Shown: positions 8,227 through 34,249 of the stretch, in pieces | Layout of the letters: every line of letters begins with the position of its first letter | How positions within the stretch are numbered: position 1 is the stretch's first letter | Origin: Candidatus Binatia bacterium | Lineage (GTDB): Bacteria > Desulfobacterota > Binatia > UBA9968 > CAXXLF01 | DNA length: 64,000 nucleotides | Direction of reading: 5' to 3' | Assembly: GCA_963664015.2 (NCBI GenBank) | Contig: CAXXLF010000001.1 | Location: 960,001-1,024,000 of the forward strand | Translations under genes and position numbers: made by a program | Notes under the pieces: generated by a model | Told to the model about the DNA's origin: nothing | Databases searched by the model: none | Seen by the model: the letters and a program-made list of their open reading frames with translations, nothing else

Positions 8227-8259
8227 TTTTTTGATCTCCTAGGGTCATCATCCCAAGAA

Positions 8260-16145: not shown

Positions 16146-17456
16146 TCAACTCGATACAGGGCTCAATTTCTCCCTAGCTTCGGCTCCCACCTTTTGAGTG
16201 TAGCTTTTCACATCCGTCGAGGTGGAAACGACCTCCGAAATCACCACCATGTGAGGAAAACGATTCTGGGCAGGATCCCTGACCACGTGAAGCGGATCGC
16301 GACCCTCCTGAACATCTCGAATCGCTTTCAACAGCTGTTTCCTAGCAGCCACGATGGCCTTGTCCGAAGTCACCAGATGCTCCCGCGTACGATTCTGAAT
16401 CGCACCTTGACTCTCCGTGGCAAAGAGGTCATGCCCAGGGAAAAACGGCCCCATGCCCGTGTAGGATTTATTCTTTAACTCTTCCCGATCCTGGAGGTAG
16501 CGGTTACCCGCCGTGCGAACGGGCCGATAATCGGAACCAACCTCCTTGATGTAACGACCATTAAACAACTCTTTGTTCAACGGCGCTTCGCGACTGAAGA
16601 CGATCATAAACTTCCAATGGTTTTCGTCGTCGATGGGCACGTGCCAATTGACGAGATACCCCGCCCCCTGAGTCTCACCGGGGACGGCGCAAAGGCTGGG
16701 CATGATAAAATTTGAAACCCTGAGATAGGCAGTCTCACCGACCGGGCGAAAGGTAAAGATTCGAACACCGAAGTCCTCTAACTCCAGCTCGACCGTGGGA
16801 GCAAGATTATCCCCGCATAGCTGATTGGGTGAGGTTTCACTCCCTGCCACTTTCCTAAATCGCGTGGGCCTGCCACTCCCTGCCAAATTCTCATCGAAAA
16901 ATCGATGCAAGAACGAGAGGTGAACAGGATCGATATTGCCTTCGTTTGCCTGCAGGTAGTTACACTCAGAGTATACCTTGTAGGAAAACCGATTCTCATC
17001 GGGGACATCGAAGATCTCGTAAGTGGGCAGTTGGGGAGGATCTCCCGGGCCCATGTAGGCAAAGATCAGCCCTGCCTTCTCAATGCAGGGATAGGCTTTC
17101 TGCCGGATGCTCTCACGGTTGCGACCGCCTTCGGGCTCCCCCGGCTGGTCCAAGCAGCGCCCTTCCCGGTCATAGAGCCATCCGTGGTAAATGCATCGAA
17201 GCCCCCCGTCCTCAACACGGCCATAACTCAAATCTGCGCCTCGATGAGAGCAGTGAATGTCTAATAGCCCCGGCTTTCCATGATCATCCCGGAAAAGGAC
17301 CAGATCCTCCCCAAAGAACCTGACCGGTTTCGGCGCGCTATTGGCAGGTAATTCTTCGGCCAGTGCGATGGGATGCCAATACCGCCGTAACATCTCCCCT
17401 GCCGGTGTTCCCGGACCCACACGGGTTAACAAATCGTTTTCTTCTTGGGTCATCAT
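16146..17456 (-). CDS. Rieske oxygenase, phthalate 4,5-dioxygenase (OphA2/Pht3)-like alpha-only type
   Basis: Motifs MTQEENDLLTRVGPGTPAGEMLRRYW, CSHRG...CIYHGW, EGNIDPVHLSFLH, D..ATESQG and EHL..SD. Confidence 0.9.
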   Translation of the reverse strand: MMTQEENDLLTRVGPGTPAGEMLRRYWHPIALAEELPANSAPKPVRFFGEDLVLFRDDHGKPGLLDIHCSHRGADLSYGRVEDGGLRCIYHGWLYDREGRCLDQPGEPEGGRNRESIRQKAYPCIEKAGLIFAYMGPGDPPQLPTYEIFDVPDENRFSYKVYSECNYLQANEGNIDPVHLSFLHRFFDENLAGSGRPTRFRKVAGSETSPNQLCGDNLAPTVELELEDFGVRIFTFRPVGETAYLRVSNFIMPSLCAVPGETQGAGYLVNWHVPIDDENHWKFMIVFSREAPLNKELFNGRYIKEVGSDYRPVRTAGNRYLQDREELKNKSYTGMGPFFPGHDLFATESQGAIQNRTREHLVTSDKAIVAARKQLLKAIRDVQEGRDPLHVVRDPAQNRFPHMVVISEVVSTSTDVKSYTQKVGAEAREKLSPVSS

Positions 17457-17539
17457 AGCTTCTTCCTCCGTGATAGGATTTTTCTAAATCGTCGAATCTC
17501 CTCTCCCAATCCTCCCGGTCCAGTGCACGAAAAGACCCT

Positions 17540-18997
17540 TTACAATTTTGGAAATGGGATGATCCCCTGAAACTTGCGGATGGCCTGCTCACGCATCTCC
17601 CGACTGCTCCGGCTCACTTTGGGAAATTTATCACGCCACTCAAACGGCCGGACCGCGTAAAACACCGCCCGGCTGTTGGTGTAATCACCGGACGCTCTCT
17701 GCTCCGGCGACATGCGCGGATCCAAGGGGGTACTCCAGCACTTATCGATAATATCGATGTTCGTTTTGGGATCGACACGGGTCATCATAGCCCACTCGAC
17801 TTCCTTCAGGTTCGTCGGGTCGATATCTTCGTCCACGACCACAACGTAGCGTCCGTTTCGGGCCGCGGCAGAACAGCTAAGAGCAGCCAGACCCGCTTGC
17901 CTGGCGTGCCCGGCATAGCGCTGCTTGATCGCAACCACCACCATGTAAGGGCTGTGGCTGTACACCCCCACGACGTCCTGAATCCCGGCGCTTTCTAACT
18001 GATCCCACAGAACCCCTGAGGATAAGCCGAGGTCCATCTTCATAGCACCGGTCCATTGGGGTGCCTCGTCTTCGAGTATGGGATCGTTTCTATGGTAAAG
18101 AGCCTTGACCTTGATCACCGGTTGGGCTTCACCCGTCCCGATCGTCCCGCCGGAGTAGTATCCAGGCCATTCACCAAAAGGACCTTCATCCCGTGCTTCC
18201 GTTTTCGGGGGAGGGATCTCTCCCTCGATGGCAATCTCCGCACTTGCCGGGATAGGAAGACCCGTGACGGGCCCCCGAATAATATCAAACGGCTTCCCCA
18301 TGAGGCCCCCCACAAGTTCCAGTTCCGAATGGCCCCAGGGGACTTTAGAATGGGCGACCATAAAAGCAAGGGGGTGTACGCTGAAAGCCGCTACGACGGG
18401 GCAGGCCTTGCCCTGTTCCCAATACTTCATACAGATGAGACGCCCATGCTGTCCGGGGCTCATCCACAAACCCAGAAGGTTCCGTTCATGGAGTTGCATC
18501 CGGTAGGTCCCCATGTTGATAAAATCACCCTCCAGCTCGGCATTGATAAGACAATCACCGGTTCCTATATAACGCCCTCCATCATGTTCATGAAAGTGCA
18601 AGGCTGGGAACTTAAAAAGATCCACATCGTTACCCGTGGAGACGTTCTCCATTACCGGTGAGGTGGTCACCTCACGGGGAGGAATCGGGGTAGCAGATTT
18701 CAGTTTACGGGTAGCCAAACGCAGGACCTCAAGCTTGCTCTTATCCGTGGGAAGTCCCAAAGCAAGGGCCACACGTTTGTAAGAACCGAATGGAAGGCTC
18801 AATACCCTATAACCCGGAGGATAACCTTTTATGTTGTTGAACATGAGCATGGGAGGTTGTGGAACCAATTCAGAAGTTGCCTCAATCAGGGCGCCAATTT
18901 CGTTATTCCAATCGGCTCCTTCGATCTCGCGGTAATCGCTAATTTTCTTGGCCGCTTCTATAAACTCCCGTATGTCATTATACTCAATTTGTCCCAT
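17540..18997 (-). CDS. UbiD-family prFMN-dependent (de)carboxylase 2
   Basis: Motifs YNDIREF, DGGRYIGT, NMGTYR, EGPFGEWPGY, VVVDEDIDP and STPLDP. Confidence 0.92.
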   Translation of the reverse strand: MGQIEYNDIREFIEAAKKISDYREIEGADWNNEIGALIEATSELVPQPPMLMFNNIKGYPPGYRVLSLPFGSYKRVALALGLPTDKSKLEVLRLATRKLKSATPIPPREVTTSPVMENVSTGNDVDLFKFPALHFHEHDGGRYIGTGDCLINAELEGDFINMGTYRMQLHERNLLGLWMSPGQHGRLICMKYWEQGKACPVVAAFSVHPLAFMVAHSKVPWGHSELELVGGLMGKPFDIIRGPVTGLPIPASAEIAIEGEIPPPKTEARDEGPFGEWPGYYSGGTIGTGEAQPVIKVKALYHRNDPILEDEAPQWTGAMKMDLGLSSGVLWDQLESAGIQDVVGVYSHSPYMVVVAIKQRYAGHARQAGLAALSCSAAARNGRYVVVVDEDIDPTNLKEVEWAMMTRVDPKTNIDIIDKCWSTPLDPRMSPEQRASGDYTNSRAVFYAVRPFEWRDKFPKVSRSSREMREQAIRKFQGIIPFPKL

Positions 18998-19246
18998 TTT
19001 CTTTCTCCTCTCGATCCTTCGGGTCCCAGTTTCAGTATCTTCCACAGTTGAACCGGCAATACTTTGAGGGAATCAACCTATGGGTATTGCAAGTCTTTTA
19101 TTCGAAAGCGGGTAGGGTGTCAACTTGGAATTGGGGCCATGTCAGGGTAGAATCGCCTACCTGCATTAGACCTTGCCGCGGGAAGTGGTTGTTGGTATGG
19201 CTATAGGCATGCGCCCAAAGTGCATTCGAATCAAAGGAGGAGCCCA

Positions 19247-20206
19247 ATGATAACTGCAAAAAATCTCCACGGATTGATGGCCATGATGCCGGCATTCGCC
19301 ACCGCCGATGCCCATGACATTAACGCCACATCGACCATCGACGTGGAGAACCTCAAGGCGAGTGTGAATCGAATGATCACCGACGGGGGCGATGTGATCG
19401 CAACCACCGGGAGCTTTGGCGAGTTTCACACTTTGCTGTGGGATGAGTTTGAGACCTTGACCCGGGCCACCGTCGAAGCCGTCAAGGGGAGGGTTCCACT
19501 CTTTATCGGTTGCACCAGCCTACACAGCAGAGAGACTATCCGAAAAATGAAGTTCATACGTGACGCAGGCGGCGAAGGGGTCCTTGTTGGCGTCCCCTTT
19601 TACTTTCCTTCGACCGTCGACAACGCGGTGCAGTTTTATCACGACATTGCCGAGCTGTTTCCCGACCTGTCCATCATGGTCTACCACAACCCGACCCTCC
19701 ACAACGTTACCTTACCGGTGGAGGCTTTTAAGAAAATCACCCAGAGCCCCAACGTCGTGGCCATGAAGGATAGCCACCGAACGACCACCGAGTTTATGAA
19801 TCTCATGGAAATCGTCCGCGGTAAGATGAGTATCTTTGTTAATCAGCTCCAATACCATCCTTTTGCTTCCCTTGGCGCCGCCGGATTCTGGTCCATCGAC
19901 TCATGGATGGGTCCCTGGCCCCTGCTCCGCCTGCGCGACGCCATCAGGGTCAACGACCTGGAAACGGCGAAACAGATCATCTTCGAGCTCGCTCCCGGTG
20001 GCGCACCACCACCGGACCTGAGGTGGCGCGAGACAGCCGCCAAGATCGCCATTCAACATGCCGGCTACTGCAATCCTGGACCGCTCCGCCCACCCTTTGT
20101 CAATATACCGGATAACGTAAAGGAGAACGTAAAAAAGCGTGCCCAATACTGGAAGGGCCTCTGTGAAAAGTACGGGCCAAAAGCAAAGGCACGAGTAACC
20201 GCTTGA
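19247..20206 (+). CDS. DapA/NAL-family hydratase-aldolase, NahE/PhdJ-like
   Basis: Motifs TAKNLHGLMAMMPAFAT.DA.D...T.TID, TTGSFGE, YHNP, Schiff-base MKDS and GP.RPPF. RBS AAGGAGG. Confidence 0.85.
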   Translation: MITAKNLHGLMAMMPAFATADAHDINATSTIDVENLKASVNRMITDGGDVIATTGSFGEFHTLLWDEFETLTRATVEAVKGRVPLFIGCTSLHSRETIRKMKFIRDAGGEGVLVGVPFYFPSTVDNAVQFYHDIAELFPDLSIMVYHNPTLHNVTLPVEAFKKITQSPNVVAMKDSHRTTTEFMNLMEIVRGKMSIFVNQLQYHPFASLGAAGFWSIDSWMGPWPLLRLRDAIRVNDLETAKQIIFELAPGGAPPPDLRWRETAAKIAIQHAGYCNPGPLRPPFVNIPDNVKENVKKRAQYWKGLCEKYGPKAKARVTA

Positions 20207-20260
20207 GGCCATCATTGGAATTCTACCAATTGAGGCTGAACCATAATAAGGCCTCCAATC

Positions 20261-20782
20261 ATGGAAAGAGAACGAGTTAGAGAAAAAGAACCGGTACAGA
20301 AAGACCAGGGGAAACACTACGAAGCGACCTTGCGACTCAACGCCGAGGCCCGGGACCGCGCCAAGTCTGGCAAGATCGTGATCAAGGCTAATGAGCGTCC
20401 CTGGTACCAGTGCAGGCAAGGATTGATCCGCCAGTATCTCTCATGGCATGACATGGAAGACACCGCAGCAACCGATTGGTCGTGCTTCGTCCACGACGTC
20501 AAGCAGCACTCGGGAAGACACCGGCACCAGGGTGGATATAATCTATTCGTTCTCGAAGGTAAGGGATCAACGGAAGTGGATGGTCAGATCTTCGATTGGG
20601 AGACATGGGATTTGATTCTCCTCCCGGTAAAACCCGGCGGCTGTGTCCACAAGCACTACAATAAATTCGCCGGGAAGTCAGCCCAGTGGATGGCATTCAA
20701 ATACAACACCTTTTCTCGCGTCCTGGGCAGCATGTTCGAGCAGGTGGAAAATTCGCCCAACTGGAAGGGCACGGACAAATAG
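20261..20782 (+). CDS. Monocupin C1 (MERERVREKEP family)
   Basis: Cupin motifs SGRHRHQGG..FVLEG.G and VHKH. Confidence 0.88.
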   Translation: MERERVREKEPVQKDQGKHYEATLRLNAEARDRAKSGKIVIKANERPWYQCRQGLIRQYLSWHDMEDTAATDWSCFVHDVKQHSGRHRHQGGYNLFVLEGKGSTEVDGQIFDWETWDLILLPVKPGGCVHKHYNKFAGKSAQWMAFKYNTFSRVLGSMFEQVENSPNWKGTDK

Positions 20783-20840
20783 GATTCGGCTGATTCTAAA
20801 CCCGCCGAGACATCGGCGGTAACATCACGGAGATAGACAA

Positions 20841-21362
20841 ATGGAAAGAGAAAGAGTAAGAGAAAAAGAACCGGCTCAAAAAGACCAGGGAGAGCACTAC
20901 GAAGCGACCTTGAGGCTCAACGCCGAGGCCCGTGACCGCGCCAAGAAGGGCAAGATCGTCATCAGGGCCAAGGATCGACCGTGGGAACAGGGACGCCAGG
21001 GCCTATCCAAAACCTATCTCTTCTGGCATGGAGTCGACGACACGGCGGCCACTGACTGGACCTGTTTTATTCACGACGTCAAGACCCATTCGGGGAAGCA
21101 CCGCCACCAGGGAGGGATCCAGTTATTTGTCCTTGAGGGCGAAGGTGGCACGGAAGTGGATAATGGGACCGTGGAGTGGCAGAAATGGGATCTAATTATC
21201 CTACCCGTCAAACCCAAGGGCTGTGTGCATAAGCACTACAATAAAGTTCCGGGAACACCGGCCAAGTGGATGGCCTTTCGCTACAATCCCTTTGCCAAGG
21301 TCCTGGGAAACATGTTCGAGCAGGTCGAAGATTCTCCTGACTTCAAGGGTGGACAAAAATAG
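20841..21362 (+). CDS. Monocupin C2 (MERERVREKEP family)
   Basis: Motifs SGKHRHQGG and VHKH; tandem paralog of C1. Confidence 0.88.
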   Translation: MERERVREKEPAQKDQGEHYEATLRLNAEARDRAKKGKIVIRAKDRPWEQGRQGLSKTYLFWHGVDDTAATDWTCFIHDVKTHSGKHRHQGGIQLFVLEGEGGTEVDNGTVEWQKWDLIILPVKPKGCVHKHYNKVPGTPAKWMAFRYNPFAKVLGNMFEQVEDSPDFKGGQK

Positions 21363-21435
21363 GCCTCGGCTTGATTCGGACTCGTGAGGCTGTCGATAGG
21401 CTGAGGCATTAGAGATAGAATAGAGGGGAAAAATT

Positions 21436-21969
21436 ATGGAGAGAGAGAGAGTAAGGGAGAAAGAACCCGTACAAAAAGATCAAGGGGAGCACTACGAAGC
21501 CACCTTGAGGCTCAACGCCGAGGCCCGGGACCGCGCCAAGTCTGGCAAAATCGTTATCAAGGCCAAGGAACGGCCGTGGCACCAAGGCCGCCAGGGATAC
21601 ACAAGGACTTATCTCTCCTGGCACGGAATGGATGATACGGCGGCAACGGACTGGACCTGCTTTATCCACGACGTCAAGGTCCATTCAGGGAAACACCGTC
21701 ACCAGGGGGGCATCCAGTTGTTTGTCCTCGAAGGGGACGGCTATACGGAGGTGGAGGGACAGAAGGTAGACTGGGAAAAATGGGATCTAATTATTCTGCC
21801 CGTCAAGCCCGACGGCTGCGTGCACAAGCACTACAACAAAGTTCCGGGAACCCCGGCAAGGTGGATGGCCTTCAGATACAACCCTTTCTCAAATGTACTT
21901 GGTAATATGTTCAATCAGGTGGAGGATTCGCCCGACTTCAAGGACGAGAAAAAGGCCTCACTTAGCTAA
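21436..21969 (+). CDS. Monocupin C3 (MERERVREKEP family)
   Basis: Motifs SGKHRHQGG and VHKH; tandem paralog of C1/C2. Confidence 0.88.
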   Translation: MERERVREKEPVQKDQGEHYEATLRLNAEARDRAKSGKIVIKAKERPWHQGRQGYTRTYLSWHGMDDTAATDWTCFIHDVKVHSGKHRHQGGIQLFVLEGDGYTEVEGQKVDWEKWDLIILPVKPDGCVHKHYNKVPGTPARWMAFRYNPFSNVLGNMFNQVEDSPDFKDEKKASLS

Positions 21970-21975
21970 ACCTGG

Positions 21976-22722
21976 CTAGACCTCCTTCGGCCACAGAACT
22001 TTGATCATCGCTTTCGTCGTCGACTTGATCGTCTTTCGCGGCCTCACCTGGTGTTTGTACAAAAGGAACGGCCAGGCTCGGTACGGGTTTTCGTCCTTGC
22101 CTTTGACTTGCGTAGCGTATTCCTCGGTCATGGGCTTGATCGTCGTAGAACTTGCCAGCAGCAGTTGATCCGCACAGGACCTTTCCAGCTGGATCGCGGA
22201 GACGCAGGTACCTTCTATGCTACGCGCCGTGACCACAATGCCGTGTCCCCGCAACAAAACCACCGAGTGCTGGCCCAGGCAGTCCGCCATTCTCTGAGCG
22301 AGGCCGTCGTTGTTGATGCCATTGCTATTGGGAAAGATCGGCACTCCGCCTTCAAAGGCCCGTGCCTCTCTGTGAAACGGAATAAGGCCGCCATCCAACA
22401 ACCCGACCATGATCGCATAACGGGCGTGACAGTGAAGGACACTCACCACGTCCGGTCTGTTTCTATAAATGGTGCTATGAATGGTGGTTTCCAGCGGGAT
22501 GGGTTCGGAGCCGGCGATCCGGTTTCCCGACAGATCCACCGTGCAGATGTCTTTGAAGTCGGCGAGGATTCCAGCGTACCTGGGGTTAATCAAGAAGGAA
22601 TCGGTACCCGGGATTCGGACGCTCAAATGGCCCGATCCGGTGAGAACCCCCTCTCCGGTCAACACTTTGATCCCATCGAGGAGACGGTTCTTAAGGTTTT
22701 TTACCTCGGTCAGTTTGGCCAT
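21976..22722 (-). CDS. Class II aldolase/adducin family protein (possible decarboxylase)
   Basis: Motifs GHLSVR, PLETTIH, metal ligands HCH and LLRGHG. Confidence 0.88.
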   Translation of the reverse strand: MAKLTEVKNLKNRLLDGIKVLTGEGVLTGSGHLSVRIPGTDSFLINPRYAGILADFKDICTVDLSGNRIAGSEPIPLETTIHSTIYRNRPDVVSVLHCHARYAIMVGLLDGGLIPFHREARAFEGGVPIFPNSNGINNDGLAQRMADCLGQHSVVLLRGHGIVVTARSIEGTCVSAIQLERSCADQLLLASSTTIKPMTEEYATQVKGKDENPYRAWPFLLYKHQVRPRKTIKSTTKAMIKVLWPKEV

Positions 22723-22787
22723 GACCTGAGCCCCCTTTCGCGGAACGTGATTTCATCCCATTAAAAACGCAGGCTTTCCCTTTTGGA

Positions 22788-24947
22788 TCAACCTGCCGAC
22801 GCCTCTTTATTTTGCCCCTGGTAAAACTCCCGGGCAATTTCCAAGTCAACCAGAGCCTTTAGAAAATGGCTGGCCTCGAGCACCTCGGCCCCTTTGTAAC
22901 CGGAATCCTTCAGGGCATTGAGTTGAGCATCATTGCACAGGGAATCGAGCTCAGCGCCTGAAAATCCATCGGTCTTTTGCGCCACCTCAGCGACAACCTT
23001 CTTCCGGGTGGCATCGTCCTTGAAGGGAGTCTTCTTGAGTTTGGACTCCATGATGGCCTTGCGATCGGCCAAGTCGGGTAGAGGCACATAAATATGTATT
23101 CCAAACCGCCCGGGCCGAAGGATAGCGGGATCCAGAAGATCCAACCGATTGGTTGCCGCAACAACAATAATGCGGCCAAAGCTCTCAATGGAGTCCATTT
23201 CCATCAAAATCTGATTGACCACGCGCTCCGCCGCCTTGGTGTCGCTGTCACCGCGACGGTTGGGGGCAATGGCATCGATTTGATCGAAGAAGATTACAGC
23301 CGGGGCGACCTGCCTGGCCACTTGAAAGGCGTGGCGAACACTCTCTTCGGATTCGCCCAGCCATTTGCTGAAGACCTCGGGACCCCGAATATAGAGGAAG
23401 TTCGCTCCCGACTCCCGGGCGATGGCCTTGGCTAGAAGGGTCTTTCCCGTCCCCGGGGGGCCGTAGAGGAGGATTCCACTGGGCGGCCGGATTCCCATGG
23501 CACGGAAGGGTTCGGGGTTGGTCAGCGGCTTTTCCACCAGGTCGCGAAGTTTTTCCTTAACGCTTTCCATCCCGCCGATATCATCCCACCCAACGTCCGG
23601 AATACTTGTGATGGTTTCTCGCATGGCGGAGGGACGGATAAGACCCGTCGCCTTCATAAAGTCATCACCGGTAACCACCAAATCGTCAAGACTTACCTTG
23701 AACCGAGCGGGCGAGAGGCGACGATCCCCCATGATTCTTCTCAGGCAGTTAAGACCAGCCTCACGGCACAGCTCCATCAGGTCCGCCCCAACAAAGCCGT
23801 GGGTAATTCGTGCCACCTCCCTCAATGTCTCAAAAATTCCTTCCGCGAGGGGCATGCCCCGACTATGGATCTGTAATATTTCCAATCTCCCTTCAGTATC
23901 GGGAGGTCCCATGAAGATCTCCCTATCGAATCGGCCAGGACGCCGTATGGCCTTATCCAGAGTTTCCACCCTATTAGTGGTCCCCAGCACCATGACTCCC
24001 TCTACTTTGTTAAGCCCATCCATCAGCTCCAACAGCTGGCCAACCATCCGGGTATCCGAATGGGAACCGCTCTCGCCCCGGATAGGCGCGATGGCGTCCA
24101 CCTCGTCAATAAAAATGATCGAGGGGAGATGATGGGACGCCTCCTCAAAGATCTTACGCAAGTTAGCTTCCGTCTCACCATATACCGAACTCACGATATC
24201 GGGACCATTGATATAAAGAAATTTTGCATTGATCTCATTGGCAATGGCTCGCGCCGTGTGACTCTTCCCGCTTCCCGGAGGTCCGTACAGGATAATCCCC
24301 CGAGGCGGATTAATACCAAGGTGACGAAAAACATCCGGAAAGAGCAAGGGAAGTTCCACCAGCTCTCGAATAAGACCGATTTCCTTTTGGAGTCCTCCAA
24401 CGTCTTCAAAGGTGACCTGATCCGAGACCACGCCCCATGATGAGAAGACATAATCCAGGTCAAGTTTTGTTTCTGCTGTCATCAAGCCCGCTTCCGGCTC
24501 GATTTCGGTGACCTTGAATGCGGTCCCCTGAGTCTGCCCCGGTAATGTCGCGTAGAGGACCTGGCCGTCGCTAACGAGCAAACCCTTGGAGGCAAAATTC
24601 TTGATCAGATAGGCATCGACCCCTTTGACGTCCGAGATGTTGACGAAGGGCGCCAAGGTGACCTTGCTTACCGTCTTCATCTGGATCGGAACGACCGAAA
24701 CCCAGTCGCCCAGAAGGCTCTTGGTTGAATGCCTGAGGTACTGGTCCATGCGGATGAGCTTCCTTCCCTTATCCCCCTCCTGCGGTTTGGCCACTCGCGC
24801 CAGAACACTTCGGCCGCTGTTAGTCTCGACCTCAATGGCATCGTCCACCTTGATGCCGTCTTTCTCCATCACCTCCGGATCGATCAAAACCCGCCCCTGT
24901 GCACTATAGACAGCGGGACACTCTTCTACTTGCAAAAATACTGCCAT
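22788..24947 (-). CDS. Cdc48/VCP-family double AAA+ ATPase with N domain
   Basis: N domain (IRMD..LR). D1 has GPPGSGKS, IFIDEVD and RRPGRFDRE. D2 has GPPGTGKT, KWLGESE, IFFDQID and LRPGRF. Also THGFVGADL..LCREA. Confidence 0.93.
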   Translation of the reverse strand: MAVFLQVEECPAVYSAQGRVLIDPEVMEKDGIKVDDAIEVETNSGRSVLARVAKPQEGDKGRKLIRMDQYLRHSTKSLLGDWVSVVPIQMKTVSKVTLAPFVNISDVKGVDAYLIKNFASKGLLVSDGQVLYATLPGQTQGTAFKVTEIEPEAGLMTAETKLDLDYVFSSWGVVSDQVTFEDVGGLQKEIGLIRELVELPLLFPDVFRHLGINPPRGIILYGPPGSGKSHTARAIANEINAKFLYINGPDIVSSVYGETEANLRKIFEEASHHLPSIIFIDEVDAIAPIRGESGSHSDTRMVGQLLELMDGLNKVEGVMVLGTTNRVETLDKAIRRPGRFDREIFMGPPDTEGRLEILQIHSRGMPLAEGIFETLREVARITHGFVGADLMELCREAGLNCLRRIMGDRRLSPARFKVSLDDLVVTGDDFMKATGLIRPSAMRETITSIPDVGWDDIGGMESVKEKLRDLVEKPLTNPEPFRAMGIRPPSGILLYGPPGTGKTLLAKAIARESGANFLYIRGPEVFSKWLGESEESVRHAFQVARQVAPAVIFFDQIDAIAPNRRGDSDTKAAERVVNQILMEMDSIESFGRIIVVAATNRLDLLDPAILRPGRFGIHIYVPLPDLADRKAIMESKLKKTPFKDDATRKKVVAEVAQKTDGFSGAELDSLCNDAQLNALKDSGYKGAEVLEASHFLKALVDLEIAREFYQGQNKEASAG

Positions 24948-25055
24948 GAAAACTCCTCCCTAACCTTTCAAAATAATCATCTTTTAAAAACACTTCAGGT
25001 ACGCCCATGCGCGCACGATCTCACACCAACCTCCTGCCACCATCGGCCGGATTCA

Positions 25056-26615
25056 TCAACGGAATACCAGCGAGCGAACGACCACCGGGACCTCCGTATC
25101 ATGACCGACCTCTCCCACTTCGATGAAGTCCATGTCATGGGAGTGGAAGCCGCTGAGTCCGACGATTGGGGTATGGGCCGAATCTTCAGAGGCCATCTTT
25201 TTTGCAATGGCACAGGCTGCCGCTGTCTCCCCCACCAGGACCAAGGGTAAATCCCGATTCCACGGCACAAGCGTAGCGGCCAGTCCGGCCGCGATCGCAT
25301 CATAGGACGACTCCTCATCGGCATAATCCAAGGACAGGGCAAAAGGCTGATCCGAACCGGTCAGAGAATCGAACCGGGACAGGGCCTCCTCAACGTCCCT
25401 TTGAGCCTGGGCCGAATCGCTCAGTCCCTGCGGGAATTTGGGAGCCACCACCATGAGATTTTTGAAGACATGCAAGTGGCCATGAGAACAAAAGATGGAG
25501 TCGAGAGGCAAATGGACCGAATAAGTCGCCACGCCGACGGGCGTAGCACGTAACCGGCTGACCGGCGTCAATACCCCCATCTTTACCCCGAGCCTCGGAG
25601 CACGCTTCCGGATCGTGGTGCCCCAATCAAAACCCACATCCGCCCCCGGTTCGGTTTCATATCCATAGACGTATTCAGCCACCCCACCAGAGAACTGCAG
25701 ATAATCGATATTTTCCAACGATGGCGGAGGTGACGGAAAAACAATCTTCCCCTCTTCCGAGACCCCCTCCCCTTCCAGGTAGTCTAGCAGCGTCTCGCCC
25801 AGGAATCGGCCGACCGCCTGCTTATGGGACCGAGTAACCGGTTGACCTATCTGCAGATTCAAACCCAATTGAGAGACAATTCTCTGCCCCGTCTCATCCA
25901 GATGGCTTAGCATTCCCTGTTCGTCGATGCCAAGCACTTTGGCCCCTACCGAAGTTGAATAAAAGCTTTCGAAAGAACCATTGGCAATCCAGGCAAATCG
26001 GGCCCCTTCCGCGCCCAGGTCCACATTGAGGACTCGCTTCTTCTCGTTGCCTGATTTATCGACGGCCCCCGCCCCAAAGGCGGCCAGCATCCCCTGGATT
26101 TTTGACTTTTCTGTTATGAATAGAAAGCGAGCTACCTCCCGGCCAAAGACCTCCTCGATGACAGGACGGCTCTTGGAATCGGCAGCTTTCCCGCTCACAA
26201 CCACCACACCGGTTTGGATCAGATCGGCAATCAAGCGTGCCTCATCGTAGCAACGGTGAAGGAAGGCCTTCAGCTGCTCTCCATCAAGCACCCCATCCGC
26301 ACGATAGGGGGTTGGCAGCACAGGTGACTCGTAAAAGACCTCTTTCGTCTTGACCACCGACCTGCTGGTCAGGTTGTGCCCCCCCTTCCGTAACACGAGC
26401 CGGCTCAATTGGAGATGGGTCGTTGCGGATCCGATGTGGAACCCTCCACTGGTCACATTGGCCAGATCCGCTTTCCCGTGGAGAAATTCCTCGCCGAGAA
26501 CAATGTCCAATGCCTCCGAGAATTCGTCCTCGTCCCAGTGCCCATCATGAAGATCCCATATGGGGAACGGCAACTGGACGATGGGCCTTCCAATTTGGAG
26601 GTTATTCAAAATCAT
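25056..26615 (-). CDS. EutA-like ASKHA (actin-like) fold protein with degenerate ATP motifs
   Basis: Segments IGSATTHLQLSRL, YESPVLPTPY, IQTGVVVVSG, LAAFGAGA, VLNVDLG, FSGGVAEYVY, LRAT..G, DFIEVG and VPVVVRSLVF match the EutA layout. Confidence 0.8.
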   Translation of the reverse strand: MILNNLQIGRPIVQLPFPIWDLHDGHWDEDEFSEALDIVLGEEFLHGKADLANVTSGGFHIGSATTHLQLSRLVLRKGGHNLTSRSVVKTKEVFYESPVLPTPYRADGVLDGEQLKAFLHRCYDEARLIADLIQTGVVVVSGKAADSKSRPVIEEVFGREVARFLFITEKSKIQGMLAAFGAGAVDKSGNEKKRVLNVDLGAEGARFAWIANGSFESFYSTSVGAKVLGIDEQGMLSHLDETGQRIVSQLGLNLQIGQPVTRSHKQAVGRFLGETLLDYLEGEGVSEEGKIVFPSPPPSLENIDYLQFSGGVAEYVYGYETEPGADVGFDWGTTIRKRAPRLGVKMGVLTPVSRLRATPVGVATYSVHLPLDSIFCSHGHLHVFKNLMVVAPKFPQGLSDSAQAQRDVEEALSRFDSLTGSDQPFALSLDYADEESSYDAIAAGLAATLVPWNRDLPLVLVGETAAACAIAKKMASEDSAHTPIVGLSGFHSHDMDFIEVGEVGHDTEVPVVVRSLVFR

Positions 26616-26876
26616 CTCTGCCTTCTCACTGGCGGGCTTGATACGAATCTAGCCCCATGTGCATTTCCCCACCCTCAACCTTAATTCCATCGAGCACCAG
26701 CAGCATGGGAATCCTTGGGCCACAATTTTTTGTCATTGGATCGGGGACAGGACGAAAACGGGAAGCGGCAATGCCACAAGACCCCAGAAGCGCTGGCAAA
26801 GCATAGGGTGCCAGCACTATCGGGCGATCAAGCAGCCGCACGCTTCCCGCTCGGAAACGGCTGAAGGTGATAAACC

Positions 26877-27362
26877 CTAACCGGCCTGATACTCGGGACA
26901 AGCCTCGAGCTGCTCGAAACCGGACCCCATGTCCACTCCGAAGATGTCGAAAAAATTGGGCATGGCAGCCACAAGCATTACAGGCTTTTCCGGGTTCGAA
27001 TTATAATGCTGGTATTCCAGCCCATCCGGTAGAAATGGCAATGCCACCACATCCCCGGCTTCCCAGTCATGTTTCACGCCGTCGACGATGGTGTACCCTT
27101 CCCCTTCCAGAATGTGGTGAACGATTCCGCCCTGCACTTTCTGCTTGCCACTGCGGCTACCCGGAGGGATCTCCTGCATGAAAAACAGATGAGCAGGACT
27201 GGCGATATCCTCGATATCCGGATGGAGGTACCACTTGATCTTGCCATGCTTATTGACTTCCCACTTGAGATCACTAAATCTAATCAGCGACCGTGCACCT
27301 TCCATCTTTTTGCGCCACGCATCCCGCTTTTCGAGTAACTTCTCGAGTAAATCTTTTGCCAT
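26877..27362 (-). CDS. Monocupin C6, related to C1-C5 but lacking metal-binding histidines
   Basis: SGKQKVQGG replaces SGKHRHQGG and EYQH replaces VHKH. It shares ILEGEG and the FEQ.E..P tail. Confidence 0.82.
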   Translation of the reverse strand: MAKDLLEKLLEKRDAWRKKMEGARSLIRFSDLKWEVNKHGKIKWYLHPDIEDIASPAHLFFMQEIPPGSRSGKQKVQGGIVHHILEGEGYTIVDGVKHDWEAGDVVALPFLPDGLEYQHYNSNPEKPVMLVAAMPNFFDIFGVDMGSGFEQLEACPEYQAG

Positions 27363-27402
27363 CAGAGAACCTCCATGTTTATTCCTTTTTTGTTTTTAAA
27401 GC

Positions 27403-27930
27403 TTACGCAGACTTTTTCTCTTCCTTGAAATCCGGCGAGTCTTCCACCTGTTCAAACATATTGCCCAGGACCTTGGAAAAAGGATTGTACCTGAAGGCCA
27501 TCCACTTGGCCGGCGTTCCCGGAACTTTATTGTAGTGCTTGTGGACGCAGCCTTTGGGTTTAACCGGCAAGATGATGAGATCCCATTTTTGCCAATCTAC
27601 CGTACTACCATCCACCTCGGTAGCCCCGTCACCTTCAAGAACAAACAGCTGAATTCCACCCTGATGCTTGTGTTTGCCCGAGTGCTGTTTGACGTCGTGA
27701 ATAAAGCAGCTCCAATCGGTTATTGCCGTGTCACTGATGCCGTGCCAGGAAAGATAGGTCCGAATAAGTCCTTGCCGGCCCTGATGCCAGGGGCGCTCCT
27801 TGGCCTTGATCACGATCTTGCCTGTCTTGGCTTTTTCCCGTGCCTCCGCGTTGAGCCTCAAGGTGGCTTCGTAATGTTCCCCCTGGTCTTTCTGTACGGG
27901 TTCTTTTTCTCTAACCCTTTCTCTCTCCAT
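27403..27930 (-). CDS. Monocupin C4 (MERERVREKEP family)
   Basis: Motifs SGKHKHQGG and VHKH. First gene of the C4-C6-EutA-Cdc48-aldolase run. Confidence 0.88.
   Translation of the reverse strand: MERERVREKEPVQKDQGEHYEATLRLNAEAREKAKTGKIVIKAKERPWHQGRQGLIRTYLSWHGISDTAITDWSCFIHDVKQHSGKHKHQGGIQLFVLEGDGATEVDGSTVDWQKWDLIILPVKPKGCVHKHYNKVPGTPAKWMAFRYNPFSKVLGNMFEQVEDSPDFKEEKKSA
27794..27930 (-). repeat. 137-bp near-identical direct repeat, copy 1 (5' end of cupin C4)
   Basis: Matches 40252..40388 at 133 of 137 positions by manual comparison. Confidence 0.9.
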
Positions 27931-28039
27931 GTAAATTCTCCTTTCCTAGTCCAATCCTGTCTTGCCTTCCCGGCCATTCCGACCAGCACTAAGTAGCCGG
28001 ATATAGCTTTCGAATTTTCTGAAAATTAATTAGATTAAT

Positions 28040-28069
28040 CGCATAACATACTGGTGAGTGAACCGTCAA
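28040..28069 (-). promoter_or_regulatory. Candidate sigma70 promoter of the C4 operon
   Basis: TTGAC-N16-TGTTAT on the minus strand, with the same spacing upstream of C5 (40472..40501). An ATTAAT-N3-ATTAAT element lies next to it at 28025..28039. Confidence 0.35.
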
Positions 28070-28092
28070 GCACCGCCCCCCTCGGGGGTTGT

Positions 28093-29514
28093 TTAACCCC
28101 ATGGCTCGATGGGAATTCGATCCCACTGCTCCCGACTCAAGAGTTTCAGGGGGTCGATTTTCTCTAGCACATCAGACGGTATTGAAAGGCGCTCCGCAAA
28201 GGCCGAGCCCAACGGCTTCGTGCAGTCGAAACCGACCTTGGTCGTGGTCGTTCCATCCAGAGAGCTCGGGTCCAGCACGCCTCCGGTCAGTCCAGGTAAC
28301 ACAATAAGTCCGCGATCGGCCTGGAAACGCATCGCCATGGCCAGTAAAATCTCTTTCTCATCGAAGATGTCCACGTCCTCGTCAAATACGAAGACGTGCT
28401 TGTGGCCGAAGGAAGCCGACAGGGCCGCCACGGCGGCAACCTTTCCCTGCCCCTCTACGGTCTTACGGATCTGAACGTAAACATGCATGCATCCTCCACC
28501 CGACATGGGAAGGTGCACCGCACGAGCCCCGGGCACCACGCTTCGCACCGCCCTTAGAACTTCGCCTTCCTTGTTGAGACTGCTGATCCAATGGGTGTGA
28601 CCCACCATGACATTGTCCCAATAGGCATGGCGACGACGGGTGATAGCGGTCACCTTGAACGTCGGGTTCCATCGCTGCGGCCCCACGTAGCGGGTAAATT
28701 CGCCAAAGGGACCCTCCGGCCTACGGTGCCCCTTGGGGACGAATCCTTCGATGACAACTTCCGCATCGGCCGGGACCAGGAAGTCGTCCCCCAGGGTCTC
28801 GGAAGGAACGAGACGAACCGGCGACCCAAGGGTCCCCCCTGCCGCCTCGTAATGACTCTCATCGGGTCCTACATGGCTAGCGGCACCCAGCAAGACCAGC
28901 GGGTGGTGCCCCACCCAGTAAGCTGCCGGCATATCTTCGCCCGCCGCTTCGTATTCCCGGAGATTATGGGCATTGTGGGAGTTCCGCCCCAAAAATACCC
29001 GAATTTCATTTTGGTTGAATAACCATCCCCGATGCATCGCCGAGTTGTCCAGCCGGGACTCCAAGTTATGGGTGAGAAACAACCCTTCGGTAATGTACCG
29101 TCCGGGATCCATGCGGTGGTGGAGGGGCGCAGGGAACCGGCGGACATCCACATCAGATCCCTTTTCCACCACCTCTTTAACCGGCGCCTCGTTACGGGCA
29201 ACCACCACCGGCTTGCGTCTTTCCTGTACCCGCTCATAGCAGGCCACTCCCGCCTGCTGGACATCCGCTCCCAGGGCGCGAGCCAGGCGAATGCGGCTGG
29301 CCATAAGAAAAGTGACCAGCGGCATCTCCATCCGTTGCCCGTCCACTATAACGTTATGGCAAACGAGCACAGGGAAACGCTTTGCCTTTTCAAACTTGGT
29401 GGCCAATGCGGTAATCTCCCAGGCCGCATTCAGGGGCTCCTCGATATGCACCACCTCATCGGGGTAGTCCTTCTCGTATTGGTCCAAATAGGAATGCAAG
29501 TCATACTGACTCAT
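28093..29514 (-). CDS. UbiD-family prFMN-dependent (de)carboxylase 3
   Basis: Motifs DLHSYL, DPGRYIT, NSAMHR, ADAEVVIEG, EGPFGEFTRY, VFDEDVDIFD and KVGFDCT. Confidence 0.92.
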   Translation of the reverse strand: MSQYDLHSYLDQYEKDYPDEVVHIEEPLNAAWEITALATKFEKAKRFPVLVCHNVIVDGQRMEMPLVTFLMASRIRLARALGADVQQAGVACYERVQERRKPVVVARNEAPVKEVVEKGSDVDVRRFPAPLHHRMDPGRYITEGLFLTHNLESRLDNSAMHRGWLFNQNEIRVFLGRNSHNAHNLREYEAAGEDMPAAYWVGHHPLVLLGAASHVGPDESHYEAAGGTLGSPVRLVPSETLGDDFLVPADAEVVIEGFVPKGHRRPEGPFGEFTRYVGPQRWNPTFKVTAITRRRHAYWDNVMVGHTHWISSLNKEGEVLRAVRSVVPGARAVHLPMSGGGCMHVYVQIRKTVEGQGKVAAVAALSASFGHKHVFVFDEDVDIFDEKEILLAMAMRFQADRGLIVLPGLTGGVLDPSSLDGTTTTKVGFDCTKPLGSAFAERLSIPSDVLEKIDPLKLLSREQWDRIPIEPWG

Positions 29515-29630
29515 AGCTAGACTCCCTAAAAAGCCACTCAACCTCTATTATAGTGGGCTTTGGTTGATAACCGACACGACTCCACCTGTTATATCCCCAG
29601 CATTTCCAATGATTCAATGAATGACTGGGT

Positions 29631-30809
29631 TCAACGTGAATCGGGTTGAGAGGCGAGTACCACGTTTTGATCCGCCAACCCTATCGGCGTCACCCACTGT
29701 TTGAGCGGAAGTCCCGCCCCATAGGCCCCGAGCTCACGCTCCCAAATCTTTCGTATGAAGACCAGCCCGATATCGTTCGGAACCAGTCGTTCATTGGTGC
29801 GATCGGGGATGGCGCCCTGACCAACCAGAGTTACGTAATCCTCCACCCAGAAAGAGTAGTATGTTGGTGTTTCCCGATCCATGTCCTCGATACGAGCCTT
29901 CCCCGCAAGCACGGCCTCAGCTATATCGTTCGGCGATTGGCTCATAGTGGCCCGAGCCTGTTGCCGGCGTTCCTGATACCGACCGGCCGCCTCTCCCGTC
30001 AGCGGGATCCAGTCTACGATGAAGGTCACGTTGCTTTCGTCGTCGATGGGAACATGCATCAAATAGCGATCCACAAACAAGTTCTTCACGTCTTCCAGGG
30101 AACCTTCCACCCGAGCTCGAGAACGCGACTGGATAACATTCGGCATATGAAAATGGATGTATTGCACCGGTGCTCCAGGGACATTGGACCCCATTCTGCA
30201 CCCGTACTCGGTCTCCTCCGCAGACACCTTGCGCGGGACGAGACGGTCCGTTTGCCCCGCCCGCGATAAGGACTCACGATGGACGAAGGGCACGTGAGCC
30301 GGATCGTTTTCAATCCGGTTAAAGTAGTTGCACGGCCAGATCTCCGGGGTCCCCGCCTCCAAGATACCTGGCCTCTCCATATCTGGGTACCGTCGTAACG
30401 GCGGAGGCTCCCCTTCACCTAGGTAGGCAAAGATAAGCCCCAGATATTCCTGCGTGGGGTAGCTGCGGATCTTCACTTTGGGCCCATTGGATTCCTCTTC
30501 CCCAGGTTGCTCGACACATTGTCCAGAACCGTCGTACTTCCAGCCATGGTAACGGCACCGGACGCAATCCCCCTCCACCCAACCGGTGGCTAGTTGAGTC
30601 CCCCGATGGGCGCAACGAAAGGCCACCACATAGGGCGTCCCGGTCTCGCCCCTGTAAAGAGTGAACCACTCGCTCATGATTTGAATTGGGACTATCTTCC
30701 CTGACGGTAAATCCTGAGCTCGATAGACCGGTTGCCAGAACCTCCGCAGGTAACTGCCAGCCATCGTGCCAGGGCCGGTTCGTGCAAAATCAATAGACGC
30801 ATCACTCAT
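29631..30809 (-). CDS. Rieske oxygenase, alpha-only (phthalate/vanillate clade), paralog R1
   Basis: Motifs TGPGT.AG.YLRRFW, CAHRG...CRYHGW, ENDPAHVPFVH and EDY...GQG. Confidence 0.9.
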   Translation of the reverse strand: MSDASIDFARTGPGTMAGSYLRRFWQPVYRAQDLPSGKIVPIQIMSEWFTLYRGETGTPYVVAFRCAHRGTQLATGWVEGDCVRCRYHGWKYDGSGQCVEQPGEEESNGPKVKIRSYPTQEYLGLIFAYLGEGEPPPLRRYPDMERPGILEAGTPEIWPCNYFNRIENDPAHVPFVHRESLSRAGQTDRLVPRKVSAEETEYGCRMGSNVPGAPVQYIHFHMPNVIQSRSRARVEGSLEDVKNLFVDRYLMHVPIDDESNVTFIVDWIPLTGEAAGRYQERRQQARATMSQSPNDIAEAVLAGKARIEDMDRETPTYYSFWVEDYVTLVGQGAIPDRTNERLVPNDIGLVFIRKIWERELGAYGAGLPLKQWVTPIGLADQNVVLASQPDSR

Positions 30810-30857
30810 GACCTTGACTCCTGCAGCCTGAAAACCGACATTGGAAAAGATCCGTAA

Positions 30858-31898
30858 TCAGCCCAAAATCTCCCCAACTTTATAAAATCTCTTGGCGTTA
30901 CCACCCAGGAGCGCGGCCTTGTGCTCTGCCTTGATATCTTTGCGCTCCAAGATTTCGTCGATTTCACCCATGGCGTTGTCAACGGCGATCTCGTGGGGAA
31001 AGTCCGAGGCGAACATAAACGGTTCGGGACCTACCCTCTCGATGGAATAGGCTAGGGCCGTTTCATTACCTTCACATCCAACGAAGATCTTTCCGCAACG
31101 GAAATAATCGGCCGGGGCACGTCCGAGATTTAGGCTCCCATATTCGACCTCCCGCGCCAGCCGGTCAATGACCAAGGGGATCCAGCTGGTCCCGCCTTCC
31201 ATGAAGCCGACCCTCAGATTGGGGAAGCGATCGAACACGCCGTCGGCGATCATTCCCGTCGTCGCTATGGCCAGGGGGAAAGGCATGCCGAGGGCCCGGG
31301 TCGGTGGAAAGACCGTAAAGGTGTTGAATCCCAGGTCGATGTAACTTCCACCGTGAACCGCCATGACACAGTCCAGTTTCTCCGCCTCCTCATAGATCGG
31401 CCAAAACTCTTTGGCACTGATATGCTTTTTGAGACCGTTAGACGGGATCATGGCGCCAACCATCCCCAGTTCCTTGACCGACCGTCTCAACTCTACCACG
31501 GCAGCAGAGGGATCCTGCATGGGAATCAATGCCACCGCCTTAAAGCGGGGGCTGAACTTCAGGTATTTCTCATACATCCAATTGTTATACGCCTTGGCAA
31601 AGACTATCGCCCAGTCCGGATAGACAACATGGCCATAGGCCAAACCCAGTGTCGGAAATAAGACGGAACATTCGGTCTCTGTCTTATCGAGAAACTCAAG
31701 CCAACGTTCTGGCCCGACGCTGGGATCAAATGTCCCCGGTTGGCGCGGCCGAGCATTCGGAGTATGGAACTCGTCCAGACTAGGCAGCATGAGCCGTGAC
31801 GAGATGTACCGATCGTTAAACGGGGCTTCAATGAACTCGTTAAGCTCTTGCTCGTTTTCCATCACGTGCCCATCGGCATCAATATATCCTTTTCCCAT
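30858..31898 (-). CDS. Amidohydrolase-2 family protein (ACMSD/LigW/LigY-like decarboxylase or hydrolase)
   Basis: Motifs IDADGH, AYNNW, PIYEEAEKLD..VH, FDRFPNL..EGG, FASDFPH and LGGNA. Confidence 0.88.
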   Translation of the reverse strand: MGKGYIDADGHVMENEQELNEFIEAPFNDRYISSRLMLPSLDEFHTPNARPRQPGTFDPSVGPERWLEFLDKTETECSVLFPTLGLAYGHVVYPDWAIVFAKAYNNWMYEKYLKFSPRFKAVALIPMQDPSAAVVELRRSVKELGMVGAMIPSNGLKKHISAKEFWPIYEEAEKLDCVMAVHGGSYIDLGFNTFTVFPPTRALGMPFPLAIATTGMIADGVFDRFPNLRVGFMEGGTSWIPLVIDRLAREVEYGSLNLGRAPADYFRCGKIFVGCEGNETALAYSIERVGPEPFMFASDFPHEIAVDNAMGEIDEILERKDIKAEHKAALLGGNAKRFYKVGEILG

Positions 31899-31946
31899 AT
31901 GCGTTCCCCCCTTTTGTACTATTTGGAATTGACAGTTTCGTTATGA

Positions 31947-32690: not shown

Positions 32691-32755
32691 TGTACACTCC
32701 TTTCCTTGGAACCTATCGAATGTTTCGACTCCGGTATTTACGCTGGGACACCCAC

Positions 32756-34024: not shown

Positions 34025-34249
34025 TTAAATTCTCTTAACTTGACTGAAGAAAGGCAATGAACGAAGCACCCGCTGAACTTATATCCCTCGAAGAGCCAAA
34101 GTCAAACATGGAGTCCGTTAAGGGGGTTATAGGTCGAAACAGAAGCTAGGCACTTCGTTCTACCGAGACTGAAACACAATTTACCAAAGATCGCGGAGGC
34201 TATTCTTTTGACACCGCGTATCCTTTTTATATATCCTCTGAGTTCCTCC

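Follow-up and report, generated by a model that had tools for sequence, protein, structure and literature searches.

A gene on the minus strand of a 64,000-nucleotide (nt) stretch of DNA from Candidatus Binatia bacterium (contig CAXXLF010000001.1, positions 960,001 to 1,024,000; this whole stretch is referred to below as the window) encodes a Cdc48/VAT-type protein which consists of an N domain and two AAA domains (D1 and D2), and in which the catalytic glutamate of the D2 Walker B motif is replaced by glutamine (Gln556). This Glu to Gln change is almost certainly a natural substitution shared by an entire clade of ATPases (named Q-type, as opposed to the E-type proteins that retain Glu), and a gene for a cupin protein was found close to the ATPase gene in every Q-type locus in which such linkage was assessable. 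The reading proposed, which we give about an even chance of being correct as a whole, is that of a D1-driven, protease-independent remodeller with an ATP-loaded, non-hydrolysing D2, which would serve the neighbouring cupins. The ATPase gene and its relevant parts are located as follows:

22788..24947, minus strand: Cdc48/VAT-like type II AAA ATPase of 719 aa (P0001), from the open reading frame and its translation
24420..24947, minus strand, approximately residues 1-176: N domain of the double-psi barrel type (PF02359)
23613..24419, minus strand, approximately residues 177-445: D1 AAA module with all catalytic motifs (K228, D281, E282, N325, R336, R339)
22848..23612, minus strand, approximately residues 446-700: D2 AAA module with Gln556 for the catalytic Glu and with GRFD changed to GRFG (G616)
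23280..23282, minus strand (TTG on the plus strand): codon CAA specifying Gln556, at the catalytic-Glu position of the D2 Walker B motif (motif script)
About 23094..23102, minus strand: residues 616 and 618 (motif script)

The open reading frame begins with an ATG start, encodes 719 residues without an internal stop and is a full-length frame. Pfam comparison identified CDC48_N (PF02359) at residues 5-88 (46.2 bits versus a cut-off of 35.1) and two stretches each of PF00004 (AAA; 9e-87) and PF17862 (AAA_lid_3); the second N subdomain (beta-clam, CDC48_2) was not among the Pfam matches listed (25 of 41 families). The score obtained with TIGR01243 (CDC48 family) was 729.5 bits, which is under the curated cut-off of 802.65, and the closest solved relative is archaeal VAT (5g4g, E 3e-192), followed by the plant, human and yeast Cdc48/p97 proteins near 1e-160. 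A hexameric double-ring AAA ATPase is the best explanation of these features. The D1 motifs as located by script are a Walker A GPPGSGKS (222), a pore loop SVYGE (254), a Walker B IFIDEVD (278, containing E282), the sensor-1 residue N325 and an Arg-finger region RRPGRFDRE (R336 and R339, with RFDR at 339), while those of D2 are a Walker A GPPGTGKT (496), a pore loop KWLGE (528), a Walker B IFFDQID (552), the sensor-1 residue N600 and an Arg-finger region LRPGRFGIH (R611, R614, G616 and H618, with RFGI at 614). A first-pass annotation of the window had called attention to IFIDEVD in D1, to IFFDQID and its CAA codon in D2, and to the intact D2 Walker A motif and pore loop, all of which are present in the sequence. 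The replacement of RFDR by RFGI to which it also pointed is present as well, although an arginine finger has not been lost, as R611 and R614 of RPGR are both there; the clade-specific part of this replacement is Asp to Gly at position 616.

Replacement of the Walker B Glu by Gln is the classic hydrolysis-dead substrate-trap mutation of AAA proteins. That Gln556 would be a sequencing or assembly error, or the mark of a decaying pseudogene, is given a negligible probability: the frame is intact and full length, D2 is conserved, and the change is found throughout the homologs and in independent contigs. When the 120 best homologs, taken from a search of 5.8 billion proteins, were aligned to the ATPase, the D2 Walker B motif was D-Q in 118 of them and the D1 motif D-E in all 120, the two D2 D-E exceptions being proteins of 1000 and 1081 aa, one of which is named Nanopusillus CDC48. 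The codon at 23280..23282 is spanned by two assembled contigs of 555 nt (X6) and 369 nt (X7) from two seawater runs belonging to different studies, with zero differences at that position. Conservation of Gln in homologs, the metagenome contigs and the clade-wide loss of Glu described below together exclude an artefact. Both X6 and X7 are 98-99% identical to the ATPase gene of the window. ATPase sequence that is nearly identical is also present in a number of metagenome runs belonging to different studies (seawater, sediment and hydrothermal vents), with X1 and X3 containing the whole stretch, and the source organism or its close kin therefore appear to be marine. The names attached to Q-type sources are Chloroflexota, Dehalococcoidia, Nitrospiraceae, Tectomicrobia, NC10, Acidobacteriota and Alpha- and Betaproteobacteria, the named sources all being metagenome-assembled genomes (MAGs).

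The relationship of the Q-type proteins to other Cdc48-like proteins was determined with a tree of 129 representatives (690 columns, FastTree LG+gamma, midpoint rooting), for which columns 556, 616 and 618 were masked prior to tree building as a safeguard against circularity. All 28 tips with Q are located within one clade of 31 (support 0.95), whose remaining three tips carry Asp, Pro, or Glu-Gln instead of Asp-Gln. The D2 catalytic Glu is retained by none of the 31 clade tips as compared to 94 of the 98 tips outside, among which Q is absent (0/98), and its loss is therefore ancient and clade-defining. The substitution is thus not peculiar to this gene and marks an old, monophyletic, multi-phylum clade, which in the tree sits among prokaryotic Cdc48-like proteins.

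The two types were then counted in several collections. A genome-contig scan based on the full-length alignment, from which generic patterns were chosen (RRPGRFDRE, GPPGTGK) and the yield of which was nearly all archaeal or sphingomonad E-type and served as a control set, gave 79 loci, being one Q-type locus (L070, from a Beijerinckiaceae MAG), 77 E-type loci and one locus cut off before the motif. A survey of 401 genomes of the phylum, 34 of which matched at E≤1e-150, provided 30 loci when matches in G403, G076, G286 and G309 were left out, three of these being Q-type (the window, G005 and G310) and 27 E-type. A metagenome scan with a 46-residue D2 fragment retrieved 80 loci (nine Q, 70 E and one without a match), and the best 150 clusters of a 50%-identity representative library comprised 13 with D-Q, one with D-H, 123 with E and 13 not aligned over the motif, the latter corresponding to 12 multi-AAA proteins of about 1200-1700 aa and P0146. 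In a plasmid collection, 51 records matched, all at less than 60% identity, the best of which (H1) is E-type, without any cupin at a distance of up to 10 kb. As far as seen, the Q-type ATPases represent a widespread and so far undescribed bacterial Cdc48-like group: neither a bacterial Cdc48 clade with Gln in D2 nor a cupin-linked Cdc48 was described in the full-text literature searched, outside of which most subscription journals fall. To the same extent, there is no description of a D2 Walker B loss that has become fixed and occurs together with a coupled GRFG and a constant cupin neighbour, the kind of protein (Cdc48/VAT-type AAA) being known.

Two genomes, G004 and G005, each carry a Q-type and an E-type Cdc48-like gene, and the genome of the window carries the Q-type only, as an E-type Cdc48-like paralog was not found in it. 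Canonical E-type genes (L009, L010, L013 and L014, in G003, G001, G004 and G005, respectively) are present in the same order as the window, with open frames of 761-763 aa in three loci and of 597 aa in L014. These E-type relatives are 48-49% identical to the ATPase of the window in a match that begins at about residue 160-177, so that their N domain differs. In a contig-end fragment (L011, G013:C125:1-2499), which codes for the N and D1 portion of an ATPase 42% identical to that of the window, the ATPase gene is closely preceded by a cupin gene; this locus is probably of the Q-type as well, with the contig ending ahead of D2.

Residue counts were compared between the 31 representatives inside the clade and the 98 outside it. 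In D1, each of K228, D281, E282, N325, R336 and R339 is present in all 31 clade members. In D2, the P-loop residue K502 (31/31), the Walker B residue D555 (30/31), R614 (31/31) and the pore-loop residue W529 (31/31) are kept, while the sensor-1 residue N600 is found in 25 of 31 versus 94 of 98 outside, and R611 in 27 of 31 versus 95 of 98. Position 616 is G in 29 of the 31 clade members versus D in 86 of the 98 others, and H618, which co-occurs with G616, is present in 23 of 31 versus 8 of 98. Co-variation with position 556 is seen in that the Q-type proteins examined carry Gly (rarely Ser) at 616 and E-type proteins Asp or Glu; in the metagenome set, all proteins with Q have G616, and those with E have D or E at this position. 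The mean pairwise identity among 116 Q-type proteins is 0.73 for D1, 0.64 for the D2 ATPase core, 0.41 for the N domain, which is the least conserved folded part, and 0.12 for the C-tail. The D1 pore-loop aromatic is weakly conserved, being Tyr in 17 of the 31 clade members.

Retention of K502, D555, R614 and W529, together with relaxation of N600 and R611 and the change from GRFD to GRFG, suggests that D2 probably binds ATP without hydrolysing it, and it is fairly likely, to judge from these residues, that D2 is catalytically silent or nearly so. In its simplest reading, D2 would be a ring under constraint that binds nucleotide and touches the substrate, with selection no longer acting in full on its catalytic apparatus, and a D2 of this type supports D1 as the motor. 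D2 is the main motor in p97/Cdc48, whereas NSF uses D1, and the D1-active/D2-inactive polarity, as in NSF, would be the most economical interpretation of the Q-type pattern. The same counts also bear on the possibility, which we regard as improbable, that D2 is not dead and hydrolyses ATP slowly as a timer, or else employs another catalytic base such as His618 acting in trans, so that both rings would drive translocation. The D2 identity of 0.64 and the invariance of W529 and R614 would fit such an active ring, as would H618 itself, which lies four residues past the arginine finger, might reach the neighbouring site and is enriched in the clade along with G616. In contrast, single clade members have Pro, Asp or His at position 556, eight of 31 carry R, I, Q or L in place of H618, and the relaxation of sensor-1 and Arg611 is what a loss of catalysis predicts. 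A further account, in which the protein is an ATP-bound holdase that binds clients without translocating them, draws on the resemblance of an E to Q ring to the engineered substrate-trap state, Walker B mutants being in use as hydrolysis-inactive forms (PMC7226402). The D1 catalytic residues, being conserved in all 31 clade members, are hard to explain without ATP turnover, and the holdase is considered less probable still than an active D2.

The cupin genes of the window near the ATPase gene, and the gene that separates two of them from it, are as follows:

26877..27362, minus strand: type A monocupin of 161 aa without an HxH metal motif (weak Cupin_2 match, alignments)
27403..27930, minus strand: type B monocupin of 175 aa with His residues H87, H89 and H130 (alignments)
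20261..20782, 20841..21362 and 21436..21969, plus strand: three tandem type B monocupin paralogs, convergent with the ATPase operon
25056..26615, minus strand: EutA-like gene (ASKHA, reactivase family) located between the cupins and the ATPase (PF06277, 8.1e-57)

Linkage between ATPase and cupin genes was searched for with 14 verified cupin queries in those 14 of the 18 Q-type loci that were assessable (at least about 1.5 kb of upstream sequence), L100, L129, L138 and L175, with at most 480 nt upstream, being left out of the score. The 14 loci are from at least six genomes of the order of the window, one alphaproteobacterial MAG and six metagenome contigs. A cupin gene is present on the same strand within 2.2 kb of the ATPase gene in 14 of 14: in nine it is directly upstream (alignment gaps of 19-141 nt), in the three loci of the window's family it is 1.9-2.1 kb upstream, beyond the EutA-like gene, in L070 it is 1.0 kb downstream, and L193 has a cupin gene on each side of the ATPase gene, at 61 and 115 nt. 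No cupin-family match was found at any of the 78 non-Q genome-contig loci (the 77 E-type loci and the one cut off before the motif), at the 70 E-type metagenome loci, or at another 28 E-type loci, all but one of these with flanks of only 1.5 kb. In distant Q-type loci, with an ATPase of about 50% identity, the cupin genes are the only common feature, mostly encoding bicupins of 370-390 aa, which are arranged in tandem (one to six copies) immediately upstream of the ATPase gene. Other neighbours vary, including UbiD, Rieske, MmgE/PrpD, TctC, Amidohydro_2, acyl-CoA dehydrogenase, hydantoinase and TauD genes; UbiD recurs in five loci, and besides the cupins no family occurs in more than five of the 18 Q-type loci. 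The first-pass annotation had regarded the catabolic setting of the ATPase gene as unusual, yet such a setting is the rule for the clade, the constant neighbour being a cupin or bicupin gene and not a whole pathway. Several of the downstream cupin matches initially recorded in L097, L098, L099 and L130 disappeared with the 14 verified queries, which left the adjacency result unchanged. It was also considered that four loci share a reductive-dehalogenase-like gene on the downstream side of the ATPase gene; this was rejected, as a direct search finds it in L097 only (in G005), where the gene at 7626..8936 on the minus strand overlaps the ATPase stop and scores 148.5 bits with TIGR02486, the cut-off being 160.

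It seems probable, albeit by a limited margin over the contrary, that the cupins are functional partners of the ATPase of some kind; that they would be clients rather than cofactors is a more tentative proposition, to which we assign somewhat less than an even chance. The make-up of the cupins themselves is of relevance here. Type A monocupins lack HxH (193 homologs at E≤1e-5 among 220 candidates, with source labels of only cupin or gentisate-dioxygenase-like), while type B, of which the window holds four copies, has HxH and a third His as well as a conserved N-terminal ERxRxRExEP stretch (MERERVREKEP). In some bicupins, such as that of L096, one half matches type A and the other type B; other linked bicupins have His motifs in both halves, and many of them the full His triad in both. 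In the cofactor account, the cupins would recruit the ATPase or gate it, as cofactors or as sensors of a ligand, and its real substrates would be other proteins (catabolic enzymes such as UbiD or Rieske oxygenases, or damaged proteins in general). Type A cupins without HxH are as expected of a non-catalytic subunit, UbiD genes are present in five Q-type loci, and Cdc48-family ATPases normally use N-domain cofactors (PMC7226402). The full His triad of type B and of both halves of many linked bicupins, and the fact that no other family reaches more than five loci, are at odds with a mere cofactor, an account which is thus judged unlikely, yet less so than an active D2. A joint structure prediction of the type A cupin, the type B cupin and the ATPase N domain (residues 1-180) gave a score of 0.01 (mark 0.32), which speaks neither for nor against such an interaction.

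The nearest families of the neighbouring cupins are gentisate, 5-aminosalicylate, salicylate and 5-nitrosalicylate 1,2-dioxygenases, all far under the curated cut-offs; TIGR02272 (gentisate 1,2-dioxygenase) gives 20-43 bits versus a cut-off of 442, so that these cupins are distant relatives and not demonstrated gentisate dioxygenases, for which 'ring-cleaving dioxygenase-like' is to be taken as a lead rather than as an assignment. The structure model of type B has a mean predicted local distance difference test (pLDDT) value of 64.3, with residues 1-16 below 50, i.e. with the N-terminal stretch left disordered, and its top Foldseek matches are gentisate, 5-nitrosalicylate and salicylate 1,2-dioxygenases at template modelling (TM) values of 0.34-0.43, to be read as weak support because the model is moderately confident. 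The three tandem type B paralogs are 76-87% identical to the 27403..27930 copy and all start with MERERVREKEP like the latter, which suggests that they were amplified locally and recently; Cupin_2 and Cupin_7 were matched weakly by 20261..20782, the single copy of the three scanned at that threshold. A further cupin-family match lies at 39882..40352 on the minus strand (G000:C1:999882-1000352, E 1.3e-25), approximately 15 kb from the ATPase gene.

The protease independence of the proposed remodeller is based on the C-terminus and on the gene content of the genome. The ATPase ends in ...QNKEASAG and has no hydrophobic-Tyr-X (HbYX) ending, as had been noted of its terminal KEASAG in the first-pass annotation and is borne out by the translation, and C-termini are not conserved across the Q-type clade (identity 0.12). 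In the genome, which is 97% complete, the only PF00227 match is HslV, immediately adjacent to HslU, and no 20S proteasome was found. This makes coupling to such a proteasome unlikely, in agreement with the earlier proposal that the protein is not proteasome-coupled, and a recurrent peptidase gene was not found in the Q-type loci.

The ATPase gene is part of a long minus-strand run of catabolic genes which, from upstream to downstream, comprises MFS, SDR, Amidohydro_2, Rieske oxygenase, UbiD, the two cupin genes, the EutA-like gene, the ATPase gene and finally a class II aldolase-like gene:

21976..22722, minus strand: class II aldolase/decarboxylase-like gene, directly downstream of the ATPase gene with a 65-nt gap (PF00596)

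Two genomes with an 88% identical ATPase (G002 and G004) share the gene order of the window, and only in these is the aldolase-like gene kept in position; it has weak matches, under the cut-offs, to 3,4-dihydroxyphthalate decarboxylase and to an aldolase II subfamily. The EutA-like gene scores 138 bits against an NCBIfam EutA cut-off of 598, all of its nearest Atlas clusters being of the EutA family, and adjoins the ATPase gene only in the window's own family (G000, G002 and G004). As a general partner of the ATPase it was rejected on account of this restriction to three genomes; a neighbour of a reactivase family fits the helper theme in a weak manner, its lineage-specific occurrence making it weak evidence. 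Two pairs of a Rieske oxygenase gene (one LigXa-like) and a UbiD-family decarboxylase gene are found at 16146..19045 and 28093..30809 (minus strand), accompanied by Amidohydro_2, SDR, DHDPS-like and MFS genes, and the region has the appearance of an island by which substituted aromatic acids would be decarboxylated and demethylated and their rings cleaved. A promoter and terminator scan of 19000..35000 gave counts no higher than in shuffles, and operon boundaries are not drawable from it.

In the proposed mechanism, D2 would bind ATP through its kept P-loop, Walker B Asp and one arginine finger, and would line the pore with the invariant Trp while hydrolysing little or no ATP. It would thereby be loaded with ATP at all times, keeping the hexamer together and the polypeptide in its grip, with the canonical D1 ring supplying the power strokes and the machine working without a protease. 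Its clients would be the adjacent gentisate-dioxygenase-like cupin and bicupin proteins, which it may remodel for assembly, activation or metal-centre repair inside variable catabolic gene islands. Rubisco activases (Rca/CbbX) are dedicated AAA+ activases serving Rubisco, and cupin remodelling would, by analogy, resemble their action.

Several observations weigh against this mechanism. The first concerns the polarity of the rings: an NSF-like, D1-driven protein, as was put forward in the first-pass annotation, agrees with the canonical D1 and with a D2 devoid of Glu, but the invariant W529 and the variable D1 aromatic do not fit a purely structural D2, an invariant D2 Trp combined with a D1 aromatic in only 17 of 31 being the opposite of what is predicted if D1 pulls and D2 is a scaffold. 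Furthermore, Gln at the Walker B position lowers hydrolysis in engineered AAA proteins and need not abolish it. With respect to the clients, the variable other neighbours may leave room for a client that is not a cupin, and the cupin family has undergone a large expansion, the genome of the window giving 25 matches (on both contigs) and G002, G004 and G005 giving 22-27, so that chance adjacency in the window's genome is to be reckoned at roughly 5 kb in 140 kb. The family is present in 21 of 41 related genomes, 15 of which are without a Q-type ATPase found, complete or truncated. The link is therefore one-directional, as all assessable Q-type ATPases adjoin cupins and most cupins are without the ATPase; this is as expected of an accessory helper, yet it lowers the weight of adjacency in cupin-rich genomes. 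The chance density does not account for adjacency in 14 of 14 loci.

A more specific and rather speculative form of the mechanism, which we think appreciably more likely to be wrong than right, is that the clade represents a dedicated AAA+ 'cupin activase', in which the ATP-locked D2 would clamp and D1 would pull a conserved disordered cupin tail (e.g. MERERVREKEP of type B), so that the barrel is opened and a metal that has been lost or oxidised is exchanged or reduced again. If true, a Cdc48-family motor would for the first time be credited with the repair of an enzyme, and nature would provide a case of a Walker B 'trap' ring that is built in and put to productive use. To our knowledge, the roles of bacterial Cdc48 homologs outside Actinobacteria (with no proteasome or ubiquitin) are largely unknown, and the Q-type clade offers for their analysis both a natural experiment, in which a textbook hydrolysis-dead substitution has been fixed in one ring with the rest of the ring being kept, and a constant candidate partner in the adjacent cupin and bicupin proteins. 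If the partnership is true, it would constitute a new class of enzyme-specific AAA+ helper, with a bearing on the upkeep of labile metal-dependent ring-cleavage enzymes in aromatic-degrading bacteria. For AAA+ mechanism, the question raised is that of a motor with one ring permanently ATP-loaded yet holding substrate.

Among known systems, the ATPase shares with VAT/archaeal Cdc48 and p97/Cdc48 a double-psi-barrel N domain, two AAA modules with AAA_lid_3 and aromatic pore loops in both rings, and differs from them in the replaced D2 Glu, GRFG for GRFD, a TIGR01243 score below the cut-off, the missing HbYX ending, the 20S proteasome not found in its genome and a constant cupin linkage, which was not seen at 148 well-flanked E-type loci. 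The neighbouring cupins, in turn, are like gentisate, salicylate and 5-nitrosalicylate dioxygenases in their Cupin_2 domains and the type B His triad (best matches 3bu7, 8ch4 and 2phd), and differ from gentisate-type dioxygenases in scores far under the cut-offs and in that some are split into A and B monocupins. With NSF, the likeness is one of apparent polarity, a canonical D1 being combined with a D2 that, from its motifs, seems non-catalytic; the ATPase is no orthologue of NSF, since the NSF chain 9ox9 scores 521.8 bits versus 643.9 for VAT, p97 also being above NSF. The NSF D2 motifs are described as degenerate (PMC5070193), whereas the Q-type D2 keeps the invariant pore-loop Trp and most motifs, the pore loop of NSF itself falling outside this comparison. 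The actinobacterial Cdc48-like protein Cpa (Msm0858/Rv0435c), the one bacterial Cdc48-like protein to have been studied, is likewise a double-ring ATPase with one degenerate ring (PMC6017811), of a polarity opposite to that of the Q-type clade: its D2 motifs are strictly conserved and its D1 is without the sensor Asn and the arginine finger. Cpa also interacts with the actinobacterial proteasome, which does not apply to the Q-type ATPase. SpoVK, which acts on MurG, provides a case of a dedicated AAA+ enzyme helper (PMC10659427). Rca/CbbX and SpoVK are single-ring ATPases, unlike the double-ring Q-type proteins, and the relation suggested is one of analogy and not of membership, the proposed likeness being that of a classic-clade AAA+ motor that would be encoded with, and act on, a specific metabolic enzyme in the absence of proteolysis.

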